A stretch of DNA of 64,000 nucleotides from an uncultured virus (IMG/VR IMGVR_UViG_2599185107_000001) (Duplodnaviria; Heunggongvirae; Uroviricota; Caudoviricetes). The position numbers and the translations under genes are program-made. A model generated the notes under the pieces. The model was not told the DNA's origin. It did no database searches and saw only the letters and a list, made by a program, of their open reading frames with translations. The stretch is taken from IMG/VR virus record IMGVR_UViG_2599185107_000001, positions 1 to 64,000 of that record, one strand, 5' to 3'. Of the stretch, positions 5,931-43,366 are shown piece by piece; the stretch's first letter is position 1; every line of letters begins with the position of its first letter.

Positions 5931-6083
5931 TCACGCTCCTTCGTGGGATGTGTGCCAGATGTGGGATGCAGTGGACAGAGCTTCGGTACGGCCTATGCTC
6001 GTCCGGTAGCACGCCAGTTCCCACCTCACGGTGTCCATCAGGCGGTCGTCGGGTGCAACGTAGGGGATCGCATCGTGTTCCAT
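5931..6083 (-). CDS. First early gene, hypothetical (50 aa)
   Basis: MEHDAIPY... with GGAG RBS. Confidence 0.5.
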   Translation of the reverse strand: MEHDAIPYVAPDDRLMDTVRWELACYRTSIGRTEALSTASHIWHTSHEGA

Positions 6084-6398
6084 AGGGTTCTCCATTGAAT
6101 CAAGCCACTCAAACACCCCCGTGTGACCGAGGCGCTTGAGTGGCCCGACTCTCCTGCGGTGTGCAGGATTGTCAGGCCGTGCCGGTTTCGGGCCAGTGCC
6201 GCTCCGCTGTCGTTGAGGGGTCGTCATGTGGGTGGGTGAAGGCAGAGCCATTCCCGTCCCGGACTTCCCGCAACGACGCTTCATCGCGCCTTAGCTGGTC
6301 CAGCCGCACCGTGTTATTTACGACCCCGTGCAAGGGTCGGAATGCGGCGGGAGAGCTTCCCGCCTTGTCAGCTGGCTGCCTCAGCAACCGTGGGACAT

Positions 6399-6428
6399 AT
6401 CCTAAATCTGGAATCGTCCCGTTGTCAA
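6399..6428 (-). promoter_or_regulatory. Sigma70 early promoter, proximal (TTGACA-18-TAGGAT)
   Basis: -35 at 6428-6423 and -10 at 6404-6399, facing the early operon. Confidence 0.75.
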
Positions 6429-6675
6429 GTCATTTCCCAATGTTGGGATGGTTCGGCCGCGATATCTGAGAGCACCCCGGAACCGTGCGGCCTCTAGCCG
6501 CCTTGGCCTCTTTCGGTTCCCCTGCGGTTGCCTCTCGGCGTAGTCGCAGGCCCTTGAAGGCCGCCCCAGTAGCGCATCGCACGGGCTGGGGCCGGTTGAA
6601 TCCGATTGCTTCTCCTAGCGCCGCGCTGGGCGGCTCAGGGATCGCTTCGGCCGGTGTGGCTGGCCGATGGGATAT

Positions 6676-6704
6676 AAGCTAGATCAATTTCATATCTGGG
6701 TCAA
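6676..6704 (-). promoter_or_regulatory. Sigma70 early promoter, distal (TTGACC-17-TAGCTT)
   Basis: -35 at 6704-6699 and -10 at 6681-6676. Confidence 0.7.
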
Positions 6705-7184
6705 GTCCCAAATAAGGGATGTTGGGAAAATTGTGCGGATGCTCTCAAAACGGTAGGGCGCTAGCCGTGGTCTGTCAGTGCTATATGAGTAAGGCGACTA
6801 TTGCGCCGGCTGCTGGGCTGTGCGGCAGGAATAATCACGGGGCAGGGTAGGGCCGTGAGCGATCGGAAGGTGCCGGCCTATTGTCGGAAGCAAAACGACA
6901 GATAGGGACAGAGAGACGCGAACACATGCGGACAGCTTGAGCGCGCCAGCTGTGCGCTATTGGTGCGCGTTGGGGTAGCGCTTGGATAGGGAATCCATCG
7001 GGTTACCCTGCAATTCAATGGCTTAGCCCCAAAGGTGCCGCGGCAGGTGACGTAAGTTGCTGCAGGAGCTTGGAAAAGAGTAGTAGCGGCACACCGCGAC
7101 CCCCCGGAGGGGGGGGCGCGCGACGGTTGGGAGTCAGATACCCTCGCGGAAATTTGCGACTAACATTTCGACAAGGAGACGCTC

Positions 7185-7424
7185 ATGAAAGATGAAACAG
7201 CTGCTCAGATTGGAGGCAACATCGGTGCACTCACGGCCGCGATTGCGATCCTTGCTTCGAAGCTCTCAGAGGCGGATCAAAAGGACCTAGTAGACGGCCT
7301 CAAGGATGCTGTTGATCGCCTCGATGCGCATCCGGAGTTCGGTTCCGAACAGGGCAGTGTCTATGTTTCAGCTTTTACTAGCAGAGCTAAGTCGATCAGC
7401 AGGGCGCTAGCGGGCCTAAAGTAG
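7185..7424 (+). CDS. Hypothetical protein (moron)
   Basis: 79 aa with AAGGAG RBS. Confidence 0.7.
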   Translation: MKDETAAQIGGNIGALTAAIAILASKLSEADQKDLVDGLKDAVDRLDAHPEFGSEQGSVYVSAFTSRAKSISRALAGLK

Positions 7425-7487
7425 CCGCTGAATGCCGCCTCTCAGGCACTGACAGGCCACTTGGTCCATGAGTTGCTATCAGCCTAC

Positions 7488-7751
7488 CTAGGCGCCGTCG
7501 GGCGGTCCTTGAGGCGCGCTAGAAGTGTCCTTTGGGGTGCATTCGACCCAGCCTGTCACGGCATCCTTCAGCCCATCAGCACCTGGATGCGCCTTGGTGG
7601 CACCTTGGCAGATGAAGTCGTCACTCGCGACGATGATCTGGTCCTTGTCGACCGTCACCAGCAGACCCTTTGGAGCCTCCTGAGGAGGGTGTTTGGTGCA
7701 GCCGGTAGCTGCGATGATGACCAGGAAGGCGACGAAATGCTTGAGAGACAC
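7488..7751 (-). CDS. Putative lipoprotein
   Basis: Signal peptide with lipobox-like AATGC. Confidence 0.6.
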   Translation of the reverse strand: MSLKHFVAFLVIIAATGCTKHPPQEAPKGLLVTVDKDQIIVASDDFICQGATKAHPGADGLKDAVTGWVECTPKDTSSAPQGPPDGA

Positions 7752-8055
7752 AGGCGGGCACCGTAAGAGAACTTGAAGTGTTACTAAGGGTAGCCCCTGC
7801 CGTTAAAAGTAAAAACTCTTCGATAGGAGCCGGAAAGGACCTCTAGGCCAGCCTTACATGTCGGGGGCGGTACGCATCCCACATATCTTTGGAAGGTTAT
7901 ATGTGGTGCGTCGGCTAGTCGCCCGCTACGGCCACCTCACCTGTAATGGATGAGGTTGTGACCTCAGCCTCAAATAAACACGATCCGACTCTCTAGAGTG
8001 CTGATAGCATGCTTCGGCAGGCACGAAGCCTGCTCTTTCGACAATGGAGTGAAGT

Positions 8056-8523
8056 ATGAAGGCGATGCAAAAGACCGTCTTAGGCCTTGCACTGGTGCTT
8101 GGGACGTTGGGAAGTGGGAGTCTGTTCGCGAAGGAAATCAGTAACCCCAGTGGCGTCAATTCTGTCGTAACCACAACACGTGTTTATGATGGTAGTGGCG
8201 ATTTGGATCGCATTGCTGCGTCTATCAAAAAGGTCTCTCCTGGCTACGCGCCGATGATGCCTCTTCGCAAGGTAACCGCCACTCGGACCGTCAAGTCGTC
8301 CGGCCTGGTCACCACGCAAGCCTTGGGTGATCCGCCTGTCGACCTTCCGTCAAGCGGTATCCCCGGAGAGAAGCGGTCGTATCGGAACGAATATCCGTCA
8401 GGCTCCTTTGAGAGCTGGACATACGAATGGGTTTCCGGCTCTAACATCGCTGGTTGGGTTTTGCGTGACTATCAGTTCCATAGCAACGGAAAGGATGAGT
8501 TTCCCCCGACACACCCGTTCTGA
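8056..8523 (+). CDS. Secreted protein (moron)
   Basis: Sec-type signal peptide ending LFA; GGAG RBS. Confidence 0.7.
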   Translation: MKAMQKTVLGLALVLGTLGSGSLFAKEISNPSGVNSVVTTTRVYDGSGDLDRIAASIKKVSPGYAPMMPLRKVTATRTVKSSGLVTTQALGDPPVDLPSSGIPGEKRSYRNEYPSGSFESWTYEWVSGSNIAGWVLRDYQFHSNGKDEFPPTHPF

Positions 8524-8547
8524 ATTCCTATACGCTCAACTCGACTC

Positions 8548-8585
8548 AAGAACACCCACCCCTATCGGGGGTGGGTGTTTTCTTT
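8548..8585. terminator. Bidirectional terminator
   Basis: AACACCCACCCC...GGGGTGGGTGTT between convergent genes. Confidence 0.7.
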
Positions 8586-9026
8586 GGTCTCCCACATCGC
8601 CACGTTGGCGGCGCGGCGGGTAATCAGGCCGGGCAGCTTTCGGCTCTTGCCGTTGACCTGGCCGTACACCCAGCGCGGCAGCTCTGCAGACACTGCCGTG
8701 TAGTTGCCAGAGTTCAGCAGACGCAGCAAGGTTGAGGTACGCAAGCGCTCTGCGCCCAAGTTGAACACGAAATCCACGAGGGCGGCCTCCTGCTGCGCTG
8801 TGAGGGGCACGCGCACGTGCTTCCTTACGCCGGCCAAGGCCTTCGCGAGGTCGGCCTCTAGCAGCGCATCAGCGCGCTCCTGAGTGATCGTCAGTCCGGG
8901 AGTCACGTCCGAGCCGGTGTGGCCGTATCCGATGGTCAGCTTACCAGCTGGGCATACGTAGGCCCGAAGGCGCAAACCCTCACTCAACTTGGTGAGCGGG
9001 GTTGCGATGCGGATGGATTCGCTCAA
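8562..9026 (-). CDS. Endolysin, GH24 lysozyme
   Basis: SEGLRLRAYVCPAGKLTIGYGHT, ALVDFVFNLG, LPGLITRR; TTG start overlaps the upstream stop. Confidence 0.92.
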   Translation of the reverse strand: MSESIRIATPLTKLSEGLRLRAYVCPAGKLTIGYGHTGSDVTPGLTITQERADALLEADLAKALAGVRKHVRVPLTAQQEAALVDFVFNLGAERLRTSTLLRLLNSGNYTAVSAELPRWVYGQVNGKSRKLPGLITRRAANVAMWETKENTHPR

Positions 9027-9175
9027 CGGACCTGCTTGCGCGGCTTGGTGCCAGTGGAACCGCCGCCACCGACAGGTGCGCCGGTCGCGGCCGATGCCTT
9101 CGCTTTGCGAATGCGGTTGCGGATGAAGAGGCCGAACGCCAAGAAGACGGCAGCAGTGATGAAGAACTCGGTCAT
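9023..9175 (-). CDS. Small membrane-anchored basic protein (50 aa)
   Basis: MTEFFITAAVFLAFGLFIRNRIRK...; AAGGA RBS. Confidence 0.6.
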   Translation of the reverse strand: MTEFFITAAVFLAFGLFIRNRIRKAKASAATGAPVGGGGSTGTKPRKQVR

Positions 9176-9189
9176 GGGTATTTCCTTTG

Positions 9190-10869
9190 TCAGTAGTTGT
9201 CGTAGAAGTTCGCCTCGTCCACCGCACGGCCAGTGACCGATTGGATGAAGTCGAGGTAGTCCTGCTCTTGCAGTTCCTCCATGCGGCGCGACTCTTCGTC
9301 CTCGACATTGCGTGCGAGCTGGTCGGCCCAGTACGCAAGCGCCATGGCGAGCGGTTCCACGCGGTCGTCGTGTTTGACGGCGCCGCGGTCGCGGGTCATT
9401 CGGGAAAGTTGGTGGAACAGCTGGTAGTGGTGGTTCTCGGTGTCCGCGTCAGCGCGGATCACGGCTTTGTCCACTACCAGACGATGCTGATTCAGCACCG
9501 GCTCGATGGTGTCGCAGATGCGGCGCTCCTTCTGCGTCGAGTGCTTGATTTCCTCGACAGAGCACGGGTATATCCGCTTAAGGACTGGCTCAAACAGCTT
9601 GTTGAACATGCCGTCGCCAAAGTTGGATTCGACGAGGATCAGCTGGACCTTCTCGACCCGCGCGATATGCGCCAAGCCCTCCAGCGTTGAATCCTCGTAG
9701 CCGCCCTTGAAGCCGCCCGAGCGACGCAGGTAAATCATGCCGCGGAGAACCTTGGTGACGCAGTAGCCCGTCTCGTCGCCGCCGCGACCCGAGGGGTCAA
9801 CGGTCATCAGCGAGCCGGTGAACTCCTCCATCTCAGGAGCCACGTACATCGGCTGGTGCCAGCGGTCGCCCGAGAAACCCACGGAGGGCAACTCCTCGAC
9901 CACCTGCTGTTTACCAGAGGACCACACGACGCGGATCGGCGCGACCTCGCGGTCAACGTCCATGACGATGAAGTCCGACAGCTTGAGCGGATACTTCTCG
10001 GCGTCAGACAGCGTGGTGTCCAGCATGAACTGCAGAGCGAAGCCGGCTCGCCCGTAGGACGCCTCGCGCTCCATCAGGTCCTTCTCGTCGAATCGCTTGG
10101 AGTCGGTCGGTGTCCAGGCGAGTGCCTGGTTGTCGTCGAACGCCGCCGCGATCATCGGAGCGAGCATCGCGCCATAGGCGACGCGCTGCTTCATGTCCTT
10201 CGGGAAACGTGCGGGCCAGATGCGGATGTCATATCCGCGTTCCGGCAGCTTGTTGTAGAGCGACTCTTCGGTCTGAGGCGTACCCAGGTAGATCACCTGG
10301 CCGCCTGGCTTCAGCACCGCGTCGAACTCTTTGATAAGTTCTGCGAGCTTCTCGCGCTGCACGATGGTCTGTGAGTTCTTCACGACCTCGATGTCATCGG
10401 GGATGATCGTATTGGCGCGCGAGCCGGTCAGCTGGCCTGTGATGCCCACCGACTTTACCGAAGGCGATTGGTCGGGCAGGGCTGGACCAACGTCGAAGGC
10501 CAGGTTCGAGTTGCGCTGGTCACCGCGCGGGCGCAGGTGCGACAGCGGCTCGAAGGTCTCGATGATCTGCTTGACGAACACCGAGAAGGCGTCAGCGCGT
10601 TCCTTGCTCGCCGAGACGACCATGATTTTGTGTTGCGGATCTTTCCAGAGAAGCCAGCACACGTATCCGGCTGTGAGGAACGACTTGCCGACGCCTCGGA
10701 ACGCCTGGACCATTCGACGCCTTGGCCCATGCTGCAGGTACGAACAGATGTCGTACTGCACGGGCGTTGGCGAAGGCAGGGCCAGGTGCGTCCAGAGGTC
10801 GAACGCGAAGTTGCGGAAGTCCTCCCAGGGATGGATGACGTGCAGGGAGGTGATCCCTGACGCCTCCAT
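9190..10869 (-). CDS. Terminase large subunit (T7 gp19-like)
   Basis: AFRGVGKS Walker A; DPSGRGGDETG; HDDR. Confidence 0.97.
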   Translation of the reverse strand: MEASGITSLHVIHPWEDFRNFAFDLWTHLALPSPTPVQYDICSYLQHGPRRRMVQAFRGVGKSFLTAGYVCWLLWKDPQHKIMVVSASKERADAFSVFVKQIIETFEPLSHLRPRGDQRNSNLAFDVGPALPDQSPSVKSVGITGQLTGSRANTIIPDDIEVVKNSQTIVQREKLAELIKEFDAVLKPGGQVIYLGTPQTEESLYNKLPERGYDIRIWPARFPKDMKQRVAYGAMLAPMIAAAFDDNQALAWTPTDSKRFDEKDLMEREASYGRAGFALQFMLDTTLSDAEKYPLKLSDFIVMDVDREVAPIRVVWSSGKQQVVEELPSVGFSGDRWHQPMYVAPEMEEFTGSLMTVDPSGRGGDETGYCVTKVLRGMIYLRRSGGFKGGYEDSTLEGLAHIARVEKVQLILVESNFGDGMFNKLFEPVLKRIYPCSVEEIKHSTQKERRICDTIEPVLNQHRLVVDKAVIRADADTENHHYQLFHQLSRMTRDRGAVKHDDRVEPLAMALAYWADQLARNVEDEESRRMEELQEQDYLDFIQSVTGRAVDEANFYDNY

Positions 10870-11114
10870 TAGTGGTGCTTCAGGCTCTCGGCGGGATCGA
10901 AGGGATGCTTCGAGACTGCCTCGGCTACCTTGCCAACCGGATTGGTCTCAGTTGCCACGGAGTCGATGCCATTGTCCTTGAGGAATTGGCGGGCCACGTT
11001 CAGTAACGCGGCCAGTCCCTTGTCGCCTGCCTCCATGTTCTCGATGGTGTCGCTCAGCTTGTCAGCGATGGCGCCATGCAGGCGCTCCATCGAATCCTTG
11101 CTGGCCTTGCTCAT
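10869..11114 (-). CDS. Terminase small subunit (gp18-like)
   Basis: AALLNVARQFLKDNGI; directly upstream of TerL. Confidence 0.88.
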   Translation of the reverse strand: MSKASKDSMERLHGAIADKLSDTIENMEAGDKGLAALLNVARQFLKDNGIDSVATETNPVGKVAEAVSKHPFDPAESLKHH

Positions 11115-11383
11115 TTCTTCAGGTACTTGTTGAAGACCGCCTCCAGGGCGGAGGTGCCGAGTGAGGAGAACACGCAGGCGATTCCGACAATTGCGGCGGT
11201 GCCGATGCCAGGGATCAATACGAGGACGCCGGCCGACGCCACTCCAAGGCCAGCGTGCAGGAGGGCACGACCGATCACCTGGCGAGGCTTGAGGGGTTCG
11301 TCGGAGACAAGCAATTTTGCGATGCCGATCAGCGCTCCGACAGCACCGAGGGTGCCGAGGAGCGTAAGCTCTTCTTTGTTCAA
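11111..11383 (-). CDS. Holin
   Basis: 90 aa with three hydrophobic segments and a basic C-terminus; between tail genes and TerS. Confidence 0.8.
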   Translation of the reverse strand: MNKEELTLLGTLGAVGALIGIAKLLVSDEPLKPRQVIGRALLHAGLGVASAGVLVLIPGIGTAAIVGIACVFSSLGTSALEAVFNKYLKK

Positions 11384-11390
11384 GGGTTCC

Positions 11391-11846
11391 TTACACAGTG
11401 TTGAAGTAGTCGTAGTAATTCGTCGCGTAGGCGGTAGTGCTGCTCTGTCCGTCACTGACGGTGCATCCCACAGTGACGCTTCCGCCTTGATTTAGCGTGG
11501 CGGTGACGCTTACATCGCAGTGCGGCCCAGATTGGCTGAGCGATACATTTGACACTTGGCTAGAACTGCTCACGAACCAGGAGTAGCTGAGGTTCCCGTT
11601 TCCGCCTGCGGTGTAGACAGTCGCGCGTGCTCCCAGCTGCCGGGTCATGGGTGTGCGGCTATTGCCGTTGTTGTACTGAGCGGAGCTTCCAGTGGCATTG
11701 CTGGAGAGGGGGGTGTAGTTGGTCCATACGGTCACCCAGCCGCCGTTCTCTCGGCGCCTGACGAACTGAGCATTTCGCCAGCCGCCGTTCTGACGAATGC
11801 GAGGCGTAGCATCCGCCCATCCGCTGTTCTGGCGTCTACGAAACAC
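11391..11846 (-). CDS. Tail-fibre-associated or receptor-binding protein
   Basis: Three N-terminal R..NGGW-type repeats, then a beta-rich Ig-like region; follows the fibre gene. Confidence 0.65.
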   Translation of the reverse strand: MFRRRQNSGWADATPRIRQNGGWRNAQFVRRRENGGWVTVWTNYTPLSSNATGSSAQYNNGNSRTPMTRQLGARATVYTAGGNGNLSYSWFVSSSSQVSNVSLSQSGPHCDVSVTATLNQGGSVTVGCTVSDGQSSTTAYATNYYDYFNTV

Positions 11847-11849
11847 GGT

Positions 11850-13828
11850 TCACCAGATCCACAGATCGCCATCCTGTGCTGTCCCGCCAGGGTCGCCGGG
11901 GCTTACGAAGGTACGTGCCTGTCGAATCCAGGCCGTGCCGCCTAAATTGAGCTGATAGAGTTCGGCCGTGGTGCGGAATCGGCCATTGCACTGAATGCCG
12001 TAGTCGCCGTCGTTTACCAAGTTCTCGGCGCCATCACCGACGTATATGCGTCGATGCCTGATGGCCCCAGAGTCGTCCTCGGTTGGAATATGCCGCTGTA
12101 GCCCTGTGTTACTCATGAGACGCATCGGACGGTTGCCCGGACTGCCGTCCGAGTTTCCACCCAGGAATCCGAGCGAAATGGCATCTGAGCCCGACCGGTG
12201 GAAGCTTATAGACGGCGCGGTTCCGCCTTGGGGCGTCCTCAGTTCGATATGCGACCCGCCAAAGGTGCCGGAGTCCCAAGTGCCTGACTTCTCCACCCCG
12301 ATCCGACCGGAAATCCACCCTCCGCTGGCGTTGAATTTGAGGTCCGGGTTGAAGTTCCCCGGTAATCCCCCCGCCCATTAGCAGACGCCAGAAGTGGAAT
12401 TTTCTCGTATCCTTTCTCGAGGAGGTTCCATGAAGAAGTCCCGCTTTACCGACAGCCAGATCATCGCCGTGCNAATATGGCGCTCGGCGGCATCACGCCT
12501 GCCATGAAGTTGGCGATGGCCGCTTAGCTCCACTTCTGGCGACCGCTAGAAGTGGGGGGATTACCCCCCGAGTTCCACAGTGTCTGCCAAGTGGTGCCCT
12601 TGTCACGACTCATCAAGCCATCGAAACGCAGCAACATGTTTCCGCCATTGCTGCTGCCAACCTGGAGCGTGCCATCTCCTACGACAGGCAGTCCGGTGAA
12701 CACAGGCGAGACCCTTGGAGCCTTCGCATCCAAGGCCGCTTGCTGTGCAGAACTGATCGGCTTGTTTGCGTCGCTCGTGTTGTCGACGTTCGACAGGCCA
12801 ACGTCGCCCTTGGTGTGCGTGTGAGTGCTCGGTGGGTAGCTGGTCGGTTTGTTCGCGACATGACTGTTGAAGTCCACGGTGTCGCGCGTCGCCAGCGCAC
12901 CCAGCCCGGATACGTCTCCGGGCACGAGCTGGACCGCACCGGACTTTCCCGCCACCGATGTGACCTGTTCGGTGTTGTCGATGTGGTCCCAGCCGGCCCC
13001 GTTGCTCACGATCTGGTCGCCGGGGTTGTATTGCCGGGCGTCGACGAAGCCACCGACGGTGACCTTGTAGAACGCCCCCGTGTTGCCGCCTTGCGGGAAC
13101 GAGCCGGTGCTTGCGTCCCAGCCGCCGCGGTAGATTAGCGTGCCAGTAAGTGACGCCCTGGCTTGTTCAGACCAGTGCTTCGCTGAGTAGGCTCCCGGTT
13201 CAAGCTCGGTGCCTGCCGGTGCGTTGGCCCAAGCCTGGGCTTGGTCACTCCAATCTTCCGCCTGGTGTGCGTAAGAGGCGGCCTGATCCTCGCTGGACGC
13301 CGCCGCGCTCGCTGAGGCCACCGCATTGGACTTGGAGTTTGCAGCTTGGATCGCATCGGCGTCGGCATCAGCTGCGCTGGCGGATGCCGCCTTCTCGTGC
13401 AGTCCAGCCGATTGATTGCTTAACGCGGACTCGGTTGCACTTGCGGCGCTTGCAGTTGCACTTTCAGCTGCCGCTTCGGCCCGAGCTGTCGCGTCTTTAA
13501 GACGCTCGGCGGTATCCTCTGCACTCGCCTGTGCATCGTTGGCCGAAGCCTGAGCACCCTCAGCGTACAGACGTGCCATGCTGGCAAAGTCAGAGGCGCC
13601 AGCGACGGCGCCCGTCAGTTCATCCACCAGATCCGAGACGTCCGCGTAGAGCTGAGGGAAGGACGGCAGGACGCGATCCTTGCCGAGACCGTCAGTGACC
13701 GTCACGTCTCCTTCCGGTTGAGTCAGTAGCGCGATCATCTGGTTCTCGCGCGTGTTCCAGCGATCCACCAATGCCGAGATGCGTTCTGCAAGTTTGGCGT
13801 TGGAGACGTAACCTGGTGTTTCTGCCAT
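11850..13828 (-). pseudogene. Tail fibre interrupted by an IS (589 aa when rejoined)
   Basis: Removing 12361-12565 plus one CCCC fuses ...LWNSG to NFNPDLKF...DGDLWIW in frame. Confidence 0.88.
12361..12565 (+). mobile_element. IS3-family element (IS1404-like), collapsed at an assembly gap (N at 12473)
   Basis: Terminal IRs GGTAATCCCCCC / GGGGGGATTACC; CCCC target duplication; orfA start [14 protein letters not shown]. Confidence 0.88.
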
Positions 13829-13838
13829 TGATTCCTTG

Positions 13839-15872
13839 TTATCGAAGCCCTTGGATGAATCCACGGACCTTGGTGATGATTAGACGGTCACCGCGCGAAG
13901 AATCGGCGATGGCCACACGGTAGGTTGCTTCCGCTGTTGTCGGGTCTCCGACGTAGTTGAGCGCATGGTTGAACTTGTGGCCTGAGCCTTGAATGATGAA
14001 ATAGGTATCTACCGTCACCCAAGCCGCACCGACCAGCTTCTGGATGTAGATGAATGCACGCCCGTTGTCCGACGACGCATGGTCCACGCCTGCGCTTAGT
14101 ACGATTAACGGAATGTGCGATTCACCTAGTAGTACAGGGGCCGGCAGCGTGAAGTTCACGATCCCTGTGTTGTTGTTCATCGACACCGAGCCGGTCCAAT
14201 CTACTGGTGCCAGGCGATTGAAATTGCCGACGATGTTCGGCGCCGACACTCTGCCTTTAAAGCCTGCGTTGCCTGTCCGGTCTACCCAGAAAACTGCATT
14301 GTTCTCGTTCTTGTCTCCTGCGCCAACCCAGATAGGCCATGTGCCTACGTTGGACACCTCAACGCGAAATTCGCCGTAGTCCAGGACGTTACCGCTCCCG
14401 TCAAGCGTGTGGGTCTTGAAGGTGCCCCCGTTGACGGTCCCCAGGTTGGCGGTGATAGATGACAGGGAGTTCGCCCAAATCTTACCGGCAGTGATCGAGC
14501 CGTCCACCAGCAGCTGACCGTTGATGCCCACAGTGCTCAGCCCACCCACGGTCCCGACCACAAAGGGAAACTTCCGGCCTGCATATCCTGCAGTTGGCGT
14601 TGTAATTCCAAAGAGGTCCGACTGAACCACAAACGCTGAGCCGGTGGGTGTAGCGCTCAGTGCCAGACCGGCTACGACAGGGTTGTTCGGATCGCCACCG
14701 TTGATGCGGAGGGACCATGTACCTGACCACTTAGCGTCGTTTGCATCTACGTAGGCCTTGTAAGACTGTTGCAGGGCCGCGAACGTTCCGTTGGCGAATG
14801 CGGCAACAGAGGTGGTCGCGATGCTTTCGGCTTGGGCCGGGGTTGCCTTGGTGTCGATCTGCTGTTTCACCGCGGCTGCAACTGAGGCCCCGGTAGCACC
14901 TGGCGAGCCATACTGCGCAGCGAACATTTGGCGCCATTCAGTGCTTGCCTGTGCGCTATTCGTGACCACTTCTAGGGATTCGTTGGTAGCAGCGATGGCC
15001 CCGTCATGAGTCGCTAACCGACCTTCAGCAGTGGAAACGCGCGACTCGACCTCGTTGACCACGACTTCCACCTTTTCGACCGCCTGGGCGACCAGCGTTC
15101 CGGTCTCCGTAGTGATCTGTGCATGCATGTCGGTCATCGATTGAACGCGTGCTTCCCTCTCAGTGGCGACAGAGCGATTCACCTGCTCAAAGCTCGCGGT
15201 TACATCTGCCTCGTTCTTCGTCATGCGCGCAAGCAGCGTAGTGATCTGCTCGGCGGTGACTTTGTCGCCATCCTCGATCAAAGCGATACGAGTGGATGCC
15301 TCAGAGATGCGGTCACCGTAGTCGCGCTTTGTATCGAAGAACTCATTGGACCGCAGGAGTTCCTGCATGATGAGTTCGGCGTTCGCGTCAATCTCAGGAA
15401 TGCGTTCTTGGAGAATTTGATAGGCAGGCGACTGGACCAGTTGGTCAACAATTGTCTGTATATCCGGGATATTTCCACCGCCGCCACCTGGAAGGCCGCT
15501 GCCGGGCACACCGCCCCCGCCGATTCCGAACTCAGCTACCTCCTGTTGCACGAAGAGGAGTTGACGAATTGCGGTATTTAGCTGGTCGGCTGGAAGTTGT
15601 GCAGCATCCTGGAAGTTGACTGCTTGCTCCGCGAAGGGAGTTACGCGGCGCAGTAGGACGCTATAGGGCGTCTGCAAGTACTCGGATTGATCAGGAATCT
15701 CGATTGTGGTTGAGTTGATCCATGTCGCAAGAACGGAGCGTGGCGATTTAGGATCGCCGACAAGCACCCGCACGTGTTCTGGCTTGAGGCGCGGAAATGT
15801 GCAGGTGAAGCGCCGCGGCCCGCCTTCGTAGGTGTAAGCCACGAAAGACAGGCCTCGGTTTTGTTCAATCAT
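13839..15872 (-). CDS. Tail fibre or adaptor protein
   Basis: gp17-like N-terminal anchor, coiled coil, and a C-terminal region like lambda-J-type tips (VAGLALSA...FVVQSDLF). Confidence 0.8.
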   Translation of the reverse strand: MIEQNRGLSFVAYTYEGGPRRFTCTFPRLKPEHVRVLVGDPKSPRSVLATWINSTTIEIPDQSEYLQTPYSVLLRRVTPFAEQAVNFQDAAQLPADQLNTAIRQLLFVQQEVAEFGIGGGGVPGSGLPGGGGGNIPDIQTIVDQLVQSPAYQILQERIPEIDANAELIMQELLRSNEFFDTKRDYGDRISEASTRIALIEDGDKVTAEQITTLLARMTKNEADVTASFEQVNRSVATEREARVQSMTDMHAQITTETGTLVAQAVEKVEVVVNEVESRVSTAEGRLATHDGAIAATNESLEVVTNSAQASTEWRQMFAAQYGSPGATGASVAAAVKQQIDTKATPAQAESIATTSVAAFANGTFAALQQSYKAYVDANDAKWSGTWSLRINGGDPNNPVVAGLALSATPTGSAFVVQSDLFGITTPTAGYAGRKFPFVVGTVGGLSTVGINGQLLVDGSITAGKIWANSLSSITANLGTVNGGTFKTHTLDGSGNVLDYGEFRVEVSNVGTWPIWVGAGDKNENNAVFWVDRTGNAGFKGRVSAPNIVGNFNRLAPVDWTGSVSMNNNTGIVNFTLPAPVLLGESHIPLIVLSAGVDHASSDNGRAFIYIQKLVGAAWVTVDTYFIIQGSGHKFNHALNYVGDPTTAEATYRVAIADSSRGDRLIITKVRGFIQGLR

Positions 15873-18800
15873 TCAGTATCCAGGCCAAAGAGGGATTTTG
15901 CGGTCCAAGAATCTTTTTGCTCGTTTCGGTCTTCGCGGCGTGCGTTAGCTTCACCGGAGCCGTCGCTCAGCCAGCCGTTAGTCTCTGCTTCCTTAAGTGC
16001 CATACGCTGGATGTTTTGCCACCCTGTGAGATTCTGGAACCAGAACAGCTTGGCTGCGTTCTCCAGTTCCTTCCGGGTCACTTCGCGATCATCTCGGATC
16101 GCCTGAGCCGGGAGCGAGGACGCTTCCATTACACGGTTGGCGAAGTCGACGACTGGAATGCCACCCACGATGTTCGTGGACATGCCAGTTGAGCGGGCGT
16201 TGGCGAACACCGGGTCTTGACCCATTAGGGGCAATGCGGTGTCGACGATGGGCTGGATGACTCCGCCCCAGGAGGACTGCGATACGCCCGCAGCAACGAA
16301 GTTACCCATAGTGAGCTGCTTCTCGCGCTTTCCTGGGTCGTCAGCAGTGTTGAGAGAAGTACGCGCGGCCCACTGTAAGGCTGCGATGGAGCTGGAGAGC
16401 ATGACCATCATGTAGGTGTTCCAGTCCTTCCAGTGGTAGGCGGAGTTCAGCAAATGCCGCTCATAGCTGTAGGCCATGAACGAACGAAACTGAGTGACTA
16501 GCTTCCCGCCTGCCGAGTGCATCAGCATGATGGAGTCGCTGGCGTCACCTTCGATCACCTGCTGGCGCGTGACGCGGAACATGAAGGCTGCCACTCGCTC
16601 CCGGTCTGCTAGATTCAGGCCGGCCTCGGTGATGTCTTCGACCTTCTTGATGCCCCGGAGAGATGCGAATAGTGCGTCCTGGGCCTCTTGGTCGAGTCCG
16701 TAGGAGCGCATTCGGCGCGTCATTCCTTCCGACAGGGCGCGCTTGTCGTTCGCCAGTTGAAGCAGCTTCATCAGCGTGGCCCGCCCCGCGATACGCTGCA
16801 GTGCGGTGTTCATTGGAGCCATACCCGAGGCGATGCTCGTGAAACGCTGGCCGAGCATTGTTGCGTTCTCCATGGCCCTGCCGAACTTGCTGTCTCCGTA
16901 GACCGACGGCATGAAGGCGTCATCTTCGATCCGCATGAATGCAGGACTGCGGAGATGCTCTGTGCCAGTCGCAACGAGGTCTTCGATGTAGCGGGCCTCG
17001 CCGGACTTCAGGGTTCCGTCGGCGCCGCGGCGAAGAAAATCACCAATGAAAGCTATGGACCTGGCAGTGTTCATCAGGCCGGCATGTGCGACGGTGGGGC
17101 CAAGCTCGGTGAAGAGCGTGAAGCCCACCTGGTTCATCACTCGGAGAAACTGTGTGTCACGTAATGCGCGCGACCAGCGCGATGCCGTGCTATTCGGGTT
17201 GACCTCAGTGGAACGGCCCATGATCGACTTGACGCCAACGTCCAGCATCCGAAGGGTCTTCTCGGGATCATCGCCTGCTTTGATGGCCTGCTCGCGAAGG
17301 AGCTGCTGGAGCGCGTCCAGCTCCGCCCTGTTGCGGATGTTTCCCTTCTGCGCTAGCGCGGACCAGCCGACGACTTCACGGATGTGTGAGGACACGATGC
17401 GGGTGGTGTCGCTGTCGAGGAAGTCGGTGACTTTGAGAGTCACATCGTCCCCGTAGCGGTTCGTGAAAGTCATCTCGGTGTTCGGGTCGAACCGGATACG
17501 TTTCCTCGCGGCTCCGACCTTGGCGCCTTCGTGCATCTGAGCGGTGTACCTGCCGAGCACTGAAGCAATCTTCGCGTCGCTCGCTCCTGCATCTCGCAGG
17601 GCATCTGTGAGTTCTTGCACCGATTCAGTGTTGAGCGGACGCACGGGTGCGCCAGTGTCACCAGTGACCAAGCCGGAGCCGCGTTTGATGAGTGCGCGGG
17701 CGTACAGCTCTGCCAGCTCCTCGTCTACGCCGCCGTCGTCGGCGAGCTTCTTGGCTTCATTCCTAGCGTGTAGCGTCTTCTGTTCGTGCTCCAGCGCATT
17801 CTTGAGGCCAGCCTTAGCCTTCTCCAGACGTTCGTCATGGCGCTGCAGCTTGCGACGGGTGTCTTCAAGACGGCGCTGAGCTGCGGTGCGGCGACGGTCG
17901 CCCTGCTTGCCAGGCATGCCCTCCAGTTCCTTCAGCGACTCTTCGGCGGCACGCACAGCAGCCTGCTTGTCGGCAGTCAGTGTGCCCAGGTCATCGGCCT
18001 TCTCGCGCGCCCGGAGGGCACGGTCGGAGGTCCCGTTATAGTCGCCGGCAATCTCGTCGAACTTCTCCAGCTTGGACGCATCGCCGTTCTTGCGCATGTC
18101 GGAGATGATGGCCTGCTTGAAAATCTCGACCCCGTCTTCTTCGCTAAGTCCCATCTCGCCAAAGATGCGCTGGTACGCCTGCTTCGACTGGACCTGGGGG
18201 AAGTAGTCCAGATTCTTGCTGCCTGGCTCCAGAACACCTGAGCGGACACCTAGGTCATAGGTCGCGTCGAGCACCGGCCGAACTGCGGCTGCGGCCTGGT
18301 TGGCGGTTTCGTCGTCGGCCTTTACGCCGCGCAGTGAGTCGGCGACCTTGCGGCTCCATGCCAGCTCACCGCCGCGGTCCCAGCGGGACAGTCCGTGCTT
18401 CGCACGCGCTGCAGTCCAGGCGGCGTTGAAGCCGCGGTGCAGCTGCGTCTCTAGCGTGGCGCGGTTGACGCTGGCGTACTCGCCTGCAGATTGCTTCACA
18501 GCCAAGTCGCGGTCGGTGTAGCCCACGCCGTCGCGGAATAGCCAACGGCCTACACCCCGCGCGGTTGGATCTTTCAGCTTTCCCATCTGCGCCGACAAGG
18601 CAAGGCGGATATTGGCGAAGGCGGGTTGGACGGACAGCTCCTCCACGCCGCGGTCCACATGCGCCTGCATCACATCGGAGAGAGAGCGTTCGGATAGGCC
18701 TGGGGTCGGGTTGTCGGGAAGGCCATTCAAGCGTGCCGCGCCTAGGCTTTGGGATGATCCGGTGATGTCTCTCCTGGCGAGTTCCTCGACCTTCAAGGAT

Positions 18801-19492: not shown

Positions 19493-19499
19493 TTGATTC

Positions 19500-29358: not shown

Positions 29359-29376
29359 CTAGAGGCCCGACTAATT
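29359..29376 (-). promoter_or_regulatory. Phage-RNAP late promoter AATTAGTCGGGCCTCTAG (+1 at 29359)
   Basis: 16/18 identical to the copy at 43425-43442; T7-like layout; at the class II/III boundary; transcript begins with a hairpin. Confidence 0.75.
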
Positions 29377-36912: not shown

Positions 36913-37293
36913 TCACTTGGCCTCCTGAAGGAAGCGGCGGAAGTCCTCGGTCTCGGTATCCAGGTCATCACCGCCCAGGCCCAGTTCCTTCGCGCAGTAG
37001 GTGCGGTAAAGGTCGATCAGGCGGTCCAGTAGGAAGCGCGGCTGCTCGGGAGTAGGCGGGTGCAGTGGCGTGCTGCGGCGCTTTTGCGCACGAGTGAAGG
37101 AGTAGCGTGTGTAGGACTGCCCCGTCGCGTCTTCGCAACGCTCCTTACGGATGTCGTAGCCGGCACGATTCAGTTCGGTAATACGCGACGCCAGCCGACG
37201 GACGCGGTAGACGCCCTCGGCCTGCCACGAGGTGATGTGCTGGTTGTTGTAGAGGTGATCGACGATCAGGTTGGCTTGACGGGACAGTTTCAT
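36913..37293 (-). CDS. Helix-turn-helix protein
   Basis: ITSWQA...RLASRITEL..AGYDI. Confidence 0.72.
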   Translation of the reverse strand: MKLSRQANLIVDHLYNNQHITSWQAEGVYRVRRLASRITELNRAGYDIRKERCEDATGQSYTRYSFTRAQKRRSTPLHPPTPEQPRFLLDRLIDLYRTYCAKELGLGGDDLDTETEDFRRFLQEAK

Positions 37294-37295
37294 TG

Positions 37296-37667
37296 CTAGA
37301 TTTCCTGTAGTGGACACACGCGGTCGAACACCGCGGGAAGCCCGTGCTTGAGCACGAGTCGCCGCAGCGCCATGCGCTGTTGCTTGGAGAAGTTGTTGGT
37401 GGGTGTCAGTGCGTCATCCACACCGCCGACCAGGCATGCCTGGATCGATCGATCGTTGGCGCGTGCGGCCAAACAGCCCGGCTCGTCCAAAGAGCGGCCC
37501 TCGAAGACGGCTCCATCTCGCTCGATGACGTAATGGACTGCGATCTTGGAGAAGCCCTGAGAGCGGTGGATGCGCGCCAGTTCGGCGCCAGTGACCGGGT
37601 GGTCCGGCCGCGTCATTGAGGCGGTCACGAACAGCTGGTCAGGGTTGGCCATCTTTTTCAGTCGCAC
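37296..37667 (-). CDS. T7 lysozyme (gp3.5) amidase homologue, catalytically degenerate
   Basis: HYVIERDGAVFEGR, SIQACLVGGVD, NFSKQQ; GTG start with GGAGG RBS. Confidence 0.8.
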   Translation of the reverse strand: MRLKKMANPDQLFVTASMTRPDHPVTGAELARIHRSQGFSKIAVHYVIERDGAVFEGRSLDEPGCLAARANDRSIQACLVGGVDDALTPTNNFSKQQRMALRRLVLKHGLPAVFDRVCPLQEI

Positions 37668-39361: not shown

Positions 39362-39365
39362 TGGG

Positions 39366-39399
39366 TTTCCTGTGTTGGGATGAATCCCAAATATGGGAT
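39366..39399. promoter_or_regulatory. Tandem operator-like palindromes
   Basis: TTTCCT-GTGT-TGGGAT and perfect ATCCCA-AATA-TGGGAT, 18 bp apart. Confidence 0.72.
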
Positions 39400-40140
39400 G
39401 TATCAGGCAAAGAAATAGCTGCTCTCAAGCACTGCGGAGAGGTCCAGGTCACCGAAGGGGGGAATCTCTGGAAGGTCAGCGGCGACCTCCACGGGTAGCT
39501 GTTCGGCCAGTTCGGTTCTGAAGTTGCCCAGTACGTCGCCCTCGTATTGCTCAATAAAGGCGTGACGCAGCGCGGCGGCGAGGGTGCCGGTGTTGCCGGC
39601 ATGGGTTCCGTAGGAGTCGTGGATCATCGCGAAGCTGGTGATCCCGTTGTCCGACGCGAGACAGGTGGTCAGCATCAGGTGGCTCGCATCGCAGGAGTGA
39701 ACGAAGTTGGGGGAGATCCCTAGACCCTGGCGACGGCGGTCAAGTTTGCTCCCGTCCATAGCCACGATTAATTCGACGCGCTTGCCGCCGATGTGGGTTG
39801 TGACGCGCTTGCCGAGGTCCTCCCTGTACTCCTGCAGGACCGGGAAGCCTGCCGGCGTGGTCCACGCGATAGGGAGGTCGGAGGCCGATGCGACCTTCGA
39901 TGCTTCCTTCAGCCAGTCCATCGCTTGGCGCGCGGCCACCACGACTTCGCCAATGCAGTCCCAAAGAATGTCGCCGAGGTAAGCGGCCTGCTCGTTGGAG
40001 GGCGAGAGTCCCTCCTTTTTGGCGTTGGCCTGCACCTGGCCGCGCATACCGGACTTGGTGACGCCGTAAGGAAGCGTCATGACTGGCTGTTTGACGATGC
40101 CACGTGTCAACAGGTGATACGCCCAGGGTTCCGTAGACAC

Positions 40141-40995
40141 TCAAGACCCTCGTTGCGCGTAGCGCCGTTCAAACTCTACAGGGGACAGGTCGCCAGTTGA
40201 ACCATGACGGCGTTGTGGGTTGTAGAACATCTCGATGTAGTCGAACACCTCGGCGCGTGCGGCGTCCTTGGTGGGGTAGATCCGCCGCCTGATCCGCTCG
40301 CGTTTGAGCAGACCAAAGAAGCTCTCCACCGGTGCGTTGTCATGGCAGTTGCCACGCCGACTCATGCTGCACACCAAGCCATGGGACGCCAGGAAACTGC
40401 GCCAGTCATCGCTGGTGTAGACAGACCCCTGGTCCGAATGAACCAGGCAACCAGCGCTGGGTTTGCGCCGCCACACCGCCGACAGCAAGGCCTGCACGAC
40501 CAACTCGGTATCGGCTCGATCGCGCATCGCCCAGCCGACGACCTGCCTGGAAAACAGATCGATCACCACAGCCAGGTACATCCAGCCTTCATGCGTACGG
40601 ATGAAGGTGAAGTCGCTCGCCCAGGCCGTGTCCGGCTCGGTCACGTCGAACTGTCGATCCAGCAGGTTGGCTGCCGCCTTGCACGGCGTTCCGCCATGGA
40701 AGCGCGGCTTGCGGCCATAGCCCACCTGGGCACGCAGTCCCTCGGTGCGCATCAATCGATGCACCCGATGGCGACTGCAACGCTCACCCAGATCGCGTAG
40801 ATCCTTGGCAATCTTGCGATGCCCATAGACACTGCCGCTGGCCAACCAGTGGTGCTTGATCAGCCCCAGCAGGCGTTCGTCTTCCTTGGCGCGTTCACTG
40901 TCGGGCGACTTTAGCCACGCGTAGTATCCAGCCCGGTTCACCCGCAAAACCCGGCACATCGCGCACACCCTGAATTCTTCGCGGTGGACTTGCAT
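40141..40995 (-). CDS. IS3 transposase OrfB (DDE)
   Basis: WASDFT, HSDQGS, DNAPVESFF. Confidence 0.95.
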   Translation of the reverse strand: MQVHREEFRVCAMCRVLRVNRAGYYAWLKSPDSERAKEDERLLGLIKHHWLASGSVYGHRKIAKDLRDLGERCSRHRVHRLMRTEGLRAQVGYGRKPRFHGGTPCKAAANLLDRQFDVTEPDTAWASDFTFIRTHEGWMYLAVVIDLFSRQVVGWAMRDRADTELVVQALLSAVWRRKPSAGCLVHSDQGSVYTSDDWRSFLASHGLVCSMSRRGNCHDNAPVESFFGLLKRERIRRRIYPTKDAARAEVFDYIEMFYNPQRRHGSTGDLSPVEFERRYAQRGS

Positions 40996-41012
40996 GAAGA
41001 GGTACTTTGCCT

Positions 41013-41285
41013 TTACCCCTTGGCAAAGTACGCGGCGGCCTTTTTTAGGATGTCGCGCTCCTCCGTCACCCGGCGCAACTCGATCTTCAGCCGCCGGACT
41101 TCGGCGCTCTGGTCCGCCTCAGCGCGCTGTACTACGCCGGGCTTGCCGAACTTGCGCAGCCAAGCGTACAGGCTGTGCGTGGTGACACCCAGTCGCTCGG
41201 CGACCTCTGCCACCTTGAACCCACGATCGGTCACTTGCCGGACCGCCTCGATCTTGAACTCATCCGTATACCGCTTACTGCTCAT
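41013..41285 (-). CDS. IS3 transposase OrfA
   Basis: HTH plus leucine zipper; A6G slippery site near its 3' end. Confidence 0.93.
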   Translation of the reverse strand: MSSKRYTDEFKIEAVRQVTDRGFKVAEVAERLGVTTHSLYAWLRKFGKPGVVQRAEADQSAEVRRLKIELRRVTEERDILKKAAAYFAKG

Positions 41286-43165
41286 GGACACCTCCGAATC
41301 AGCCATTTTCCATGGCCTTGAGATGTCTAGGAAATCCTGGGCGTATCANCCGGACCGCCTCGATCTTGAACTCATCCGTATACCGCTTACTGCTCATGGA
41401 CACCTCCGAATCAGCCATTTTCCATGGCCTTGAGATGTCTAGGAAATCCTGGGCGTATCAAGGCCATCCCAGAACAAGGCGCAAGCGTTCCCTGCCTCGG
41501 CTTCTGCCCTGACACGCGCCGCAGCCACGTCCATCACTGCCGTGTAGATGTCGGCCGGCTTGTCCTGCGGTAGAAGGTTCGTCGCAGAGCCGCCGATGGA
41601 GTCTCGGAGCATCGCCGAGAAGTTCTGCAAGCCGTTGCACGAGCCGTCGAGGGCGACCGGCAGGTGCGACACGTGCTCGTTGCCGTTAATGGAGTAGCCG
41701 AGCCACTCAAAGCAGGCGGCGAGGGCGCAGAACGGCGAGTCGGCTTTGGACCAAGCGCGCTGGCCGTCCAGCGGGTTGAGGGCCGAGTCTAGAATCATCT
41801 CCTCGTTCGCCTTGACCCACGCGAGGCGTTCCGAGAAGGCGACCTTATCGACGCCGAAGCAGTTTGCGACGTGGATAGCCAGCCAGAACGCGCCGTCCTC
41901 GCCAAGCGGTACGCCTTCGGCAAGTGTCAACAGTGCTTTTGCCTGGTCGTCGCCTTGCGGAGTCAGGATCGATGGGATCGGGTAGACCCGTCCGCGGAAG
42001 TCCAAGTTGTGCGGAAAGTAGATCGCCTCCTCTTCTTTGAACTTCACCGCCAGAGCGATTTTCTGCGCTGCCGACAATCGGCGGGAGGTGCCGCGGGCGT
42101 TCTCTTCGTAGACCTCTGCGCGGGCGCGCTTCCACGCCTTGAACTCCTCCGCATGGTGCTCCTTGTAGAACTCGGGGTCGCTAACCAGCAGTGCCGGCTG
42201 CTCCGGCAATTCCACTAGGTCGCGGTCAGGCAGGTCAGCGAAGCCGCCGCCCATTGCCCAAGCGTCCTGCATAACTTCCAGGACTGGTTTGTTGATCTTC
42301 CACGGAGTGGACTGGATGAGGTTGACCGCCCGGTAGACATTGGGCATGTCTGCCTGCTCCAGCTCGCGCTTGTAGGCACGGTTGCGCGTGCGCACGAGGT
42401 CCGCTCTTCCGCCGATGTCGGTGAGATAGCCACCGTCGCGAGGCGTCGTCCAGTCCTTGGGCGGGACGAGCATGGGCAACCACACTGGCAGGAACATCGA
42501 GGCGCTCTCGTGGGCCTTGGCGAGCCACTCGCGGATCGCGGCGGTGCCCTGAAGGATCGCGACGGTTTGGTTCTTGCGGGGTCTGGTCAGGATGATTTCG
42601 ACCAGGCCAGATGCCTCAATGAAGAGGTCGATCAGCTTCATGCCGACCAGAGCCTCTTCGTCCGGCGTGAACACGAACATTTCGGTCTCGGTCTTGGCGA
42701 GGGCGTGGTTCATCACTCCGGTCGAGTGATGCGCAGAGGTGGATTTCTTCAGCTGTTGTTGGATTACCCGGTAGAGGCCCGCGTGGTTGTCCCGCAGCTT
42801 TTTGTAGTTCACGTCCTGGGCGAGGGCAGCGCCTACAGAGCGCGCTACTGCTGTCAGCTTGGCCTGCTCGCCAGCCAGGGCATTCACGCACACCACCGCG
42901 GTCAGGTAAGCGCAACCCTCGGGGTCGAGATGCTCCAGCCACTTCACCGCCGTGTGTCTACGGCCGCCACCTCCTTGCTTAGCCTTCTCGACAAACTCAC
43001 GGATGGCTTGGCCGGTGGCCGCGACCGCTTGCATGACCAGCTTCTTGCCGGGGCCGGTGTCAGCCTCGTCGGAATTGGCGCGGGCCTTCTCGTAACGGGC
43101 AATGCCGAGCGAAGTCGATTCGGATTCCAGCTGGAGCTGGCGTTCGTGGAGCGTTTGGGCGGTAG

Positions 43166-43199
43166 ATTGCATATTAGGAATGCGTCCCGAATTTGAGAT
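43166..43199. promoter_or_regulatory. Degenerate tandem operator pair over the RNAP start codon
   Basis: ATTGCA-TATT-AGGAAT and GTCCCG-AATT-TGAGAT, 18 bp apart. Confidence 0.55.
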
Positions 43200-43208
43200 G
43201 GAATGGGC

Positions 43209-43244
43209 AAACGAAAAACGCCCCCGCCCGAAGGCGGAGGTGTT
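43209..43244 (-). terminator. Intrinsic terminator in the RNAP leader
   Basis: AACACCTCCGCC-TTCG-GGCGGGGGCGTT followed by TTTCGTTT. Confidence 0.78.
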
Positions 43245-43350
43245 GGCGGAGCTGCTGAAACCGGCACGGCCGGAGGGTGGTACTCGAAGAGCCCCTTCAG
43301 TGGAACTGAAAGAGAGCTTTAAGTGACACCCTTGTGGTTCGAACTATCTT

Positions 43351-43366
43351 ATCCCATATCTGGGAT
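43351..43366. promoter_or_regulatory. Perfect operator-like palindrome
   Basis: ATCCCA-TATC-TGGGAT. Confidence 0.72.

Follow-up and report, generated by a model that had tools for sequence, protein, structure and literature searches.

A conserved set of palindromes and a candidate MarR-type repressor in a T7-like prophage

We have analyzed a 64-kb window of DNA, the first 64 kb of the 79,172-bp contig IMGVR_UViG_2599185107_000001 (classed as a virus record in IMG/VR), which carries a T7-like prophage. An initial annotation had described in it a palindrome, ATCCCA-N4-TGGGAT, as the recurring element of a candidate lysogeny switch. The palindrome recurs at places that are conserved in related prophages, and in one relative it changes together with the recognition helix of a MarR-like protein encoded at the very end of the contig (390-1, minus strand). 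It is likely that these palindromes are the operators of this MarR-type repressor, which would bind them as a dimer. The initial observation was largely right, the core of its reading is backed by comparison with relatives, and we hold the identity of the repressor with fair confidence as far as sequence comparison allows. T7, the textbook strictly lytic phage, has no repressor. A MarR-based switch in temperate T7-like phages is an already published hypothesis, the novelty of which the initial annotation overrated.

Perfect copies of the palindrome occur at 39384-39399 and 43351-43366, two against 0.01 expected, and none of 100 shuffled sequences reached this number. With up to two mismatches there are six sites (5952, 6399, 6434, 6705, 39384 and 43351) against 1.52 expected, and one of the 100 shuffles reached six; the two perfect and four near-perfect copies described at the outset are thus both in excess of chance. 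A symmetrised weight matrix was then derived exclusively from 20 distinct sites of the relatives G001-G004, which avoids circularity. Scanning the whole contig with it gave seven matches of at least 12 bits (Table 1), all inside the T7-like prophage and separated by a gap from the next-best match (9.6 bits); 50 shuffles gave on average 0.98 matches of at least 12 bits, with a top score of 18.2. As the initial annotation had noticed, neither the virion module nor the P2-like prophage farther along the contig contains a match of this strength, and the remaining contig has none. Six of the seven sites are fully intergenic in a prophage of which the gene map leaves 11.9% non-coding (binomial P ~2e-5). 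The seventh, at 5952, overlaps the 3'-terminal codons of a predicted open reading frame (ORF; 5931-6284), 22 nt before the ATG at 5927-5929.

Three of the sites surround the gene for the single-subunit RNA polymerase (RNAP) of the phage. Along the minus strand the order is a phage-type promoter motif, operator B, a leader of ~130 nt with its terminator, the pre-RNAP site, the RNAP gene and operator A. Operator B follows the promoter motif by ~60 nt and precedes the RNAP start codon by 178 nt; the pre-RNAP site falls between the leader terminator and the RNAP ATG. A copy had been placed over this start codon; the conserved site in fact ends 11 nt upstream of the ATG (43170-43172). Operator A begins 3 nt past the RNAP stop codon. 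The first replication gene had been supposed to follow it; the next gene is a 44-codon ORF that is not recognisable as a replication gene and has no assigned function, and its ATG is 22 nt beyond the palindrome. The leader itself (43215-43350, minus strand) is conserved, contains internal hairpins and ends in the terminator just before the RNAP gene. It matches no Rfam family and could be an attenuator or a small RNA. The Rfam scan identified no family at the palindromes either, its sole hits being a tRNA-Lys and the C4 RNA pair of the P2-like prophage.

The remaining sites belong to the early region. One sigma-70-type early promoter passed the promoter scan, TTGACA-18-TAGGAT (6428->6399, minus strand, 10/12 matches), with its -35 box TTGACA at 6423-6428. 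Its -10 box TAGGAT (6399-6404) doubles as a half-site of operator C2. Copies had been claimed on both of two sigma-70 early promoters. This is borne out for the one just described. The second would be at operator D, where the palindrome abuts a -35-like box (TTGACC, minus strand), but the scan did not accept it as a promoter. A companion box, CTTTGCC (with at most one mismatch), is found exactly 6 nt upstream, on the sense strand, of the pre-RNAP, A and E operators (43206-43212, 39406-39412 and 5974-5980 in the window, minus strand). Counting relatives, it accompanies 15 of 63 instances against 0.25 expected, and seven of the 15 are outside the RNAP C-terminal codons. Promoter-associated operators are without this box.

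The initial annotation had also arranged the sites in strong-plus-weak pairs 18 bp apart. The 18-bp phase itself is real: the half-site TGGGAT, present in 19 copies in 79 kb, repeats exactly 18 bp apart at 5944/5962 and 39376/39394, where ~0.005 such pairs are expected. As full sites, the weak partners are mostly marginal. Those at 39366, 6687 and 43166 score 7.4, 6.4 and 6.4 bits, and those at 5934, 6381 and 6416 are outside the top 25 of the matrix scan. At the place corresponding to 6687/6705 both members reach at least 12 bits in G002 and G003, and G005 has a good pair 18 bp apart. A spacing of 35 bp is more regular and separates 6399 from 6434 as well as the two members of a palindrome pair in the integrase 3' end of relatives.

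The motif is conserved in related prophages of Xanthomonas and Lysobacter, the hosts of the relatives, where it occupies the same places. Among 21 related loci located via the RNAP, the post-RNAP site (A) has no more than one mismatch in 6/6 close relatives (L001-L006) and in L008, a relative of 70% identity. The site ~190 bp upstream of the RNAP gene (B) is perfect in 3/3 close relatives that have this sequence (L002, L004 and L006). At the pre-RNAP place, G006 has a site of 16.9 bits and G005 a palindrome of its own. In whole records of relatives, the early-promoter pair as well as sites D and E recur at the corresponding positions. The C1/C2 pair has the same 35-bp spacing in G001, G004 and L069, site E is kept in G001-G004, L064 and L069, and early-promoter sites occur together with site E in G001-G004, L064, L069 and L074. 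The pair 35 bp apart in the last integrase codons of relatives corresponds to a place beyond the end of the contig. Throughout, the central 4-base spacer varies freely and the arms are retained. A search of IMG/VR and of species genomes with the MarR-like protein added few further loci.

Matches are few in two host genomes. With at most one mismatch the palindrome occurs at seven places in a 5.1-Mb Xanthomonas genome, four of them in the prophage including both perfect ones, which are 2,618 bp apart, the B-A spacing of G002 and G004; a 6.7-Mb Lysobacter genome has five places. No host regulon is visible in either.

The strongest indication of what reads the palindrome comes from G005. Its RNAP is 87% identical, yet its record contains no match to the matrix. 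Seven matching places hold ATCCAC-N2-GTGGAT in its stead. Two of these copies flank the RNAP gene, preceding its start and following its stop, and two are at early-promoter places, one of them occupying the spacer of a TTGACA ... TAGATT promoter. A pair stands ahead of the MarR region, and the last copy is in the integrase tail, where the amino acids encoded are not the same but a palindrome persists. Both arms have changed symmetrically and at all sites together, and the reader is therefore expected to be symmetric and phage-encoded. The MarR-like proteins of G005 and G004 are 35% identical, whereas other shared frames show 42-95% and long core proteins 62-95% identity. The recognition helix reads ASRHIMDW in phages with ATCCCA and SSRNVTSW in G005, a difference of four residues. 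A third combination occurs in G010, a distant T7-like phage genome with terminal repeats in which the order MarR, integrase, RNAP is kept: the helix is ASRNFYRL and the palindrome TAAGAT-N-ATCTTA, one copy of which precedes the RNAP gene by ~135 bp, with two more elsewhere. In this genome (loci L061-L063; 20900-21000 and 26600-26720 in the orientation used here) the palindrome is part of a ~70-bp cassette that is duplicated between the early region and the RNAP upstream region.

As judged from profile and model, the 129-residue window protein is a member of the MarR family. With a profile built from 71 relatives, 41 solved chains of the MarR family are matched (best E 5.5e-11), and individual members of this family match the Pfam models MarR_2 (35/71) and MarR (12/71). 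An exhaustive protein search returned 1,321 cluster representatives at E <= 0.001, a word-indexed search only six relatives. The AlphaFold2 model has a mean local confidence (pLDDT) of 96.5 and a predicted template modelling score (pTM) of 0.87, with helices at residues 6-23, 30-41, 47-53, 59-69 and 101-128 and strands at 83-88 and 91-99. Foldseek returned 77 matches at E <= 0.001, and the top ones among the matches listed are all MarR-family regulators, with template modelling (TM) scores of 0.5-0.68. The residues linked to the palindrome, among them the four at 65-68, belong to helix 59-69 of the model, which the beta wing (83-99) directly follows. The single cysteine of the protein is not conserved. 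The gene stands directly before a tyrosine integrase gene in G001-G005, G008 and G010, with attP and the RNAP gene adjoining. That the protein acts as a homodimer is suggested by its family and by the symmetry of the sites.

In the reading that we favour, repressor bound at the early sigma-70 promoter, with C2 using the -10 box as a half-site and C1 35 bp upstream, would exclude host RNA polymerase and keep it off the early operon, ArdA included. Three sites bracket the RNAP gene, of which B and the pre-RNAP site would limit synthesis of the polymerase and site A would keep transcription from running on into class II genes. Relatives have one more pair, in the final integrase codons next to attP. 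Expression of the repressor, jointly with integrase, would be driven by a weak promoter of its own and would hold the phage in dormancy. A separately driven, weakly self-controlled MarR-integrase unit would fit with the terminator (1235->1213, minus strand) and the promoter-like element 501->474, with its degenerate palindrome, that precede the MarR gene. This element, a putative promoter, is kept in G004. Integration at attP, between integrase and the RNAP gene, would in addition separate the RNAP gene from the early operon. Of the original proposal, that one dimeric repressor binding cooperatively silences the early, RNAP and class II tiers at once, the comparison supports the part in which one phage-encoded symmetric binder has its operators at these points; cooperativity and silencing are predictions from their arrangement.

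Several observations weigh against this reading or limit it. Three site classes (before RNAP, after RNAP, and E) are at no recognisable promoter, and the CTTTGCC box at these gene-start sites hints at another factor or function there. Where a site adjoins a -35 box on its upstream side, the bound protein could be an activator instead of a repressor. The degenerate palindrome that overlaps the promoter-like element before the MarR gene (460-475) is weak, at 6.8 bits. Compared singly with the Pfam MarR model, the window protein reaches only E 0.1 and misses the threshold. The window and G004 have a common palindrome though their MarR proteins are only 58% identical, and consequently the link between protein and palindrome depends on a short helix and three specificity classes. 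Finally, RNA-library contigs from four runs of a single study span the entire 1-20000 interval with its late genes, so that they do not show the prophage to be silent; such contigs carry no strand, ends or levels, may stem from DNA carry-over and do not tell which genes are silent.

Alternative explanations differ in whether they replace the function, the protein or the nature of the sites. The same protein and the same sites could serve lytic timing, the regulator shutting early promoters and tuning the polymerase instead of maintaining lysogeny. The MarR gene is located downstream of the early genes on the same strand, a MarR-type factor of cyanophage P-SSP7 is described as acting on a host gene during infection (PMC9692554, as far as its available text goes), and LUZ100, according to the accessible part of its description, yielded no stable lysogens (PMC10134795). 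We nevertheless consider this alternative unlikely, since the MarR gene directly precedes integrase in all relatives with that region, the elements are integrated at a tRNA-His gene, a terminator (1213-1235) and an own promoter-like site are found ahead of the gene, and good palindromes just upstream of the MarR region in G005 and G008 fit a self-controlled maintenance gene. That another phage protein binds the sites is very unlikely. The initial annotation had named three candidates, and two DNA-binding candidates are present in 8/8 relatives: the MarR-like protein, whose recognition helix changes jointly with the palindrome, and an HTH_39 winged-helix protein (36913-37317). Several small early ORFs without known family might encode an unrecognised binder as well. 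The DNA-binding stretch of the HTH_39 protein, however, differs by one residue only between window/G004 and G005, phages with unlike palindromes, and this protein was set aside as the specific binder; so was the third candidate, a winged helix-turn-helix protein (1549-2052) present in 1/8 relatives. A host transcription factor is highly improbable. Binding by a phage protein is itself a prediction, and relatives with the same palindrome come from related hosts; against this stand the few matches and the lack of a visible regulon in the two host genomes described above, as well as the joint change of the palindrome with a phage protein.

Two further alternatives concern the nature of the palindrome itself. 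In T7, RNA processing sites are located before and after the RNAP gene, where sites occur here as well, and the palindromes might act in the transcripts as hairpins that direct processing or affect stability, comparable to the intercistronic sites in the early RNA of T7. The two perfect copies do fold as 6-bp hairpins (-9.4 and -9.7 kcal/mol; z -2.6 and -1.4), whereas 5952 and 43184 form no hairpin (z +1.07 and -0.01), 6434 is weak (z -0.37) and 6705 folds otherwise. Among the 306 arm positions of 51 distinct sites, 81 are unpaired, and of these only 13 are G-U on the sense strand, compared with 39 A-C. C1 and D lie upstream of -35 boxes, and the sites of one phage share their sequence and change together, which independent hairpins need not do. 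With folding of this kind limited to the two perfect copies and arm mismatches favouring A-C over G-U, hairpins were rejected as the common function, and we assign this explanation a very slim chance. The idea that the phage RNA polymerase uses the palindrome as its promoter draws on the copy directly after the RNAP gene and on sites that face genes; GGGA in the right arm also resembles the start regions of T7-group promoters. There is a separate candidate for this role, an asymmetric 19-bp motif with the consensus AATTAGTCGGGsCTmTAGA, which is probably that promoter. It is conserved in five relatives and stands before the RNAP gene and before the virion module (Table 1; further minus-strand copies at 29358-29376 and, with 3 mismatches, at 39755-39773 inside the 3' part of the RNAP gene). 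In G005 its copies are at the same places with at most one base different, the virion-module copy being identical, despite the other palindrome. A single-subunit polymerase would give no reason for a symmetric arm change, and the virion module has no palindrome. A role as phage-polymerase promoter was thus rejected in favour of a motif that does not co-vary with the palindrome, and its probability is close to negligible.

A more elaborate possibility, which taken as a whole we also regard as unlikely, is that the switch is two-part and sensitive to the integration state. The integrase-end pair and the RNAP operators lie at opposite ends of the prophage, and excision alone would join them, ~250 bp apart. 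The joined sites would flank attP and the phage-type promoter, so that MarR occupancy, and hence RNAP expression or recombination, could differ between the integrated and excised states. The CTTTGCC box of the gene-start operators, at a fixed distance from the dyad, could moreover be the docking point of another conserved factor, for which the invariant HTH_39 protein is a candidate. In G005 the gap between box and palindrome is 7 nt, and the distance to the dyad centre is thus unchanged.

Boeckman et al. (2022, Virology 568:86) reportedly proposed a lysogeny module of MarR and integrase in temperate T7-like phages. In the available text of a paper that cites them, they are credited with the hypothesis that MarR represses the RNAP via sites flanking the promoter upstream of the RNAP gene (PMC10134795), and the corresponding part of a second paper repeats it (PMC11321410). 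The former text also reports that transcript mapping in the Pseudomonas phage LUZ100 found the MarR-integrase unit to be separately driven (PMC10134795). Our literature search, in which Boeckman et al. were represented through citing papers only, found no paper that shows binding by the MarR-like protein. To the module as these partial accounts portray it, the operator set described here adds a fuller site map and a natural specificity switch, some of which may already stand in Boeckman et al. The likeness extends to the T7 backbone, the single-subunit RNAP, the MarR gene directly upstream of integrase (in relatives), the palindromes on either side of the promoter region that precedes the RNAP gene, and the separate promoter proposed for MarR and integrase. 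Specifically, B and the pre-RNAP site in the window and the integrase-end pair in relatives lie on either side of the phage-type motif. What differs from those accounts is the host group, Xanthomonas/Lysobacter, and the wider spread of sites. Beyond the RNAP promoter, they occupy a sigma-70 early promoter, the immediate vicinity of the RNAP gene on both sides and the stretch ahead of a small early gene; relatives also have them within the 3' end of the integrase gene.

The proposed repressor resembles the textbook lambda CI in that a dimer would bind several palindromic operators with about one helical turn between half-sites, which overlap promoter elements and come in pairs suggestive of cooperativity. 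It differs from CI in the fold, a MarR winged helix compared with the CI/Cro-type helix-turn-helix with its cleavable domain. Moreover, no divergent repressor/cro arrangement is seen here, the key target would be the phage RNAP gene, and no link to RecA cleavage is visible. With bacterial regulators such as MarR, MexR, MepR, SlyA and AbfR the protein shares profile and fold, with the recognition helix followed by a beta wing, and a proposed palindromic target that overlaps promoter elements. Unlike them it is phage-encoded and shorter (129 residues), ends in one long C-terminal helix in the model, and has no evident ligand or redox sensor. The pMarR of P-SSP7 is likewise a MarR-type protein of a T7-like phage; in the portion of its description available, that factor is reported to raise the expression of a host gene during infection and no operator network on the phage genome is described (PMC9692554).

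The T7-type genome runs from ~43,588 to 1, with nearly all supported genes on the minus strand (Table 1). Matches to RNAP, primase/helicase, DNA polymerase, portal, capsid, tail tube, internal virion protein and terminase are on a single strand. Past the endolysin there is a gap with few cargo ORFs, followed by the early region with ArdA and several small ORFs without known family, and the MarR-like gene is the last before the contig end. The contig ends at the MarR stop codon (1-3), and integrase, which follows in every relative with that region, would be off the contig; RNA-library contigs extend ~2 kb past position 1. The closest isolates are T7-like phages with RNAPs 39-45% identical, and a DNA similarity search of 5000-9200 against isolated phages returned lysozyme fragments only. 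Directly 3' of the capsid gene there is a strong hairpin with a T-run (25345-25380, minus strand); T7-group phages have a terminator at the same position. Two cargo ORFs are on the opposite (plus) strand, 1549-2052 and 8056-8523, the latter with a signal-peptide-like start. They may be lysogeny-expressed; short high-depth RNA-library contigs lie over 1598-2134 and 8144-8450, although contigs cannot rank genes. A segment of 209 bp that includes an N (12357-12565; N at ~12473) is skipped by the long contig in all four RNA-library runs and covered by separate high-depth contigs that continue into unlike sequence. The probable cause is repeated sequence or faulty scaffolding in the record.

The integrated state is borne out by the attachment-site repeats. 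A 53-bp direct repeat, the 3' part of a tRNA-His gene, bounds both prophage ends in G004, where the intact tRNA-His(GTG) gene lies beyond integrase, and the RNAP-side copy is present in the window. A search of the left part of the window found no such repeat, the integrase end being off the contig. Five GGTGAC(G/A)-like repeats (43450-43510), probably arm-type sites of the integrase, occur between the att core and the phage-type promoter, and distant relatives have them too. The tRNA-His fragment (43536-43588) adjoins an intact tRNA-Lys(CTT) gene (43677-43752), past which comes the integrase gene of the P2-like prophage (44459-45640), and the two prophages thus sit side by side at a tRNA cluster. 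The P2-like prophage encodes a C4 antisense RNA with its a1/b1 target (Rfam; 48315-48398 and 48479-48531, minus strand), an immunity element of the P1/P7 type.

The RNAP gene of the window is split by an IS3-family element with inverted ends TGATACGCCCAGG, a 3-bp target duplication (CCT) and two ORFs (orfA, 41013-41306; orfB, 40141-40995). Positions 2-573 and 572-816 of the phrog_414 profile map to the two RNAP pieces, and in relatives the gene is unbroken, with 801-823 codons. An N at 41349, between two identical 111-nt copies, marks an assembly join. Because its RNAP gene is split, the prophage is defective and as it stands cannot run a lytic programme; the system in this window is a relic.

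Table 1. Coordinates of the palindromic sites, associated signals and genes of the T7-like prophage. Scores in bits are from the weight matrix derived from relatives.
Feature	Position	Strand	Remarks
MarR-like winged-helix gene, proposed repressor	1..390	minus	129 aa; assigned by profile and fold
Promoter-like TGTACA-16-TATCAT before MarR gene	460..501	minus	501->474; 9/12 matches
ArdA anti-restriction gene	4987->4361	minus	early region
Operator E	5944..5967		palindrome 5952-5967, 16.9 bits; half-site 5944-5949 in 18-bp phase
Operators C1 and C2	6399..6449		C1 6434-6449, 21.7 bits; C2 6399-6414, 19.0 bits; 35 bp apart on early promoter
Operator D	6687..6720		palindrome 6705-6720, 19.8 bits; weak partner 6687-6702, 6.4 bits
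Holin, small and large terminase, endolysin		minus	after virion genes; endolysin 9338->8562
Virion module		minus	order: portal, scaffold, capsid, tail tube A and B, internal virion proteins, fibres
DNA polymerase, endonuclease, exonuclease		minus	next in order after primase/helicase
Operator A	39376..39399		perfect palindrome 39384-39399, 25.4 bits; half-site 39376-39381 in 18-bp phase
RNAP gene	43172->39403	minus	start of gene order; then SSB-like protein, RusA-like nuclease, amidase, primase/helicase
IS3-family element splitting RNAP gene (39403..43172)	40115-41460		RNAP pieces assigned by phrog_414 profile
Pre-RNAP site GTCCCGAATTTGAGAT	43184..43199		14.0 bits; minus-strand reading ATCTCAAATTCGGGAC
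Intrinsic terminator-like hairpin and T-run	43221..43240	minus	between operator B and RNAP gene; kept in L002, L004, L006
Operator B ATCCCATATCTGGGAT	43351..43366		perfect palindrome, 22.6 bits
Phage-RNAP-type promoter motif AATTAGTCGGGGCTATAGA	43424..43442	minus	distinct from palindrome
Attachment-site repeat, 3' part of tRNA-His gene	43536..43588		53 bp; RNAP-side prophage end

Nothing follows for the host strain itself, since the element is a dead prophage. Its interest lies in the family to which it belongs. How temperate relatives of T7 stay silent is in print only as a hypothesis, and this locus and its relatives provide a testable operator consensus, a map of sites over three transcription tiers and a natural specificity switch. 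The switch sets four helix residues against two palindrome types. Taken together, consensus, map and switch would allow a small study of binding and reporter activity to test the MarR model, and matched repressor-operator pairs on T7-type polymerase genes may be useful for controlled expression systems.

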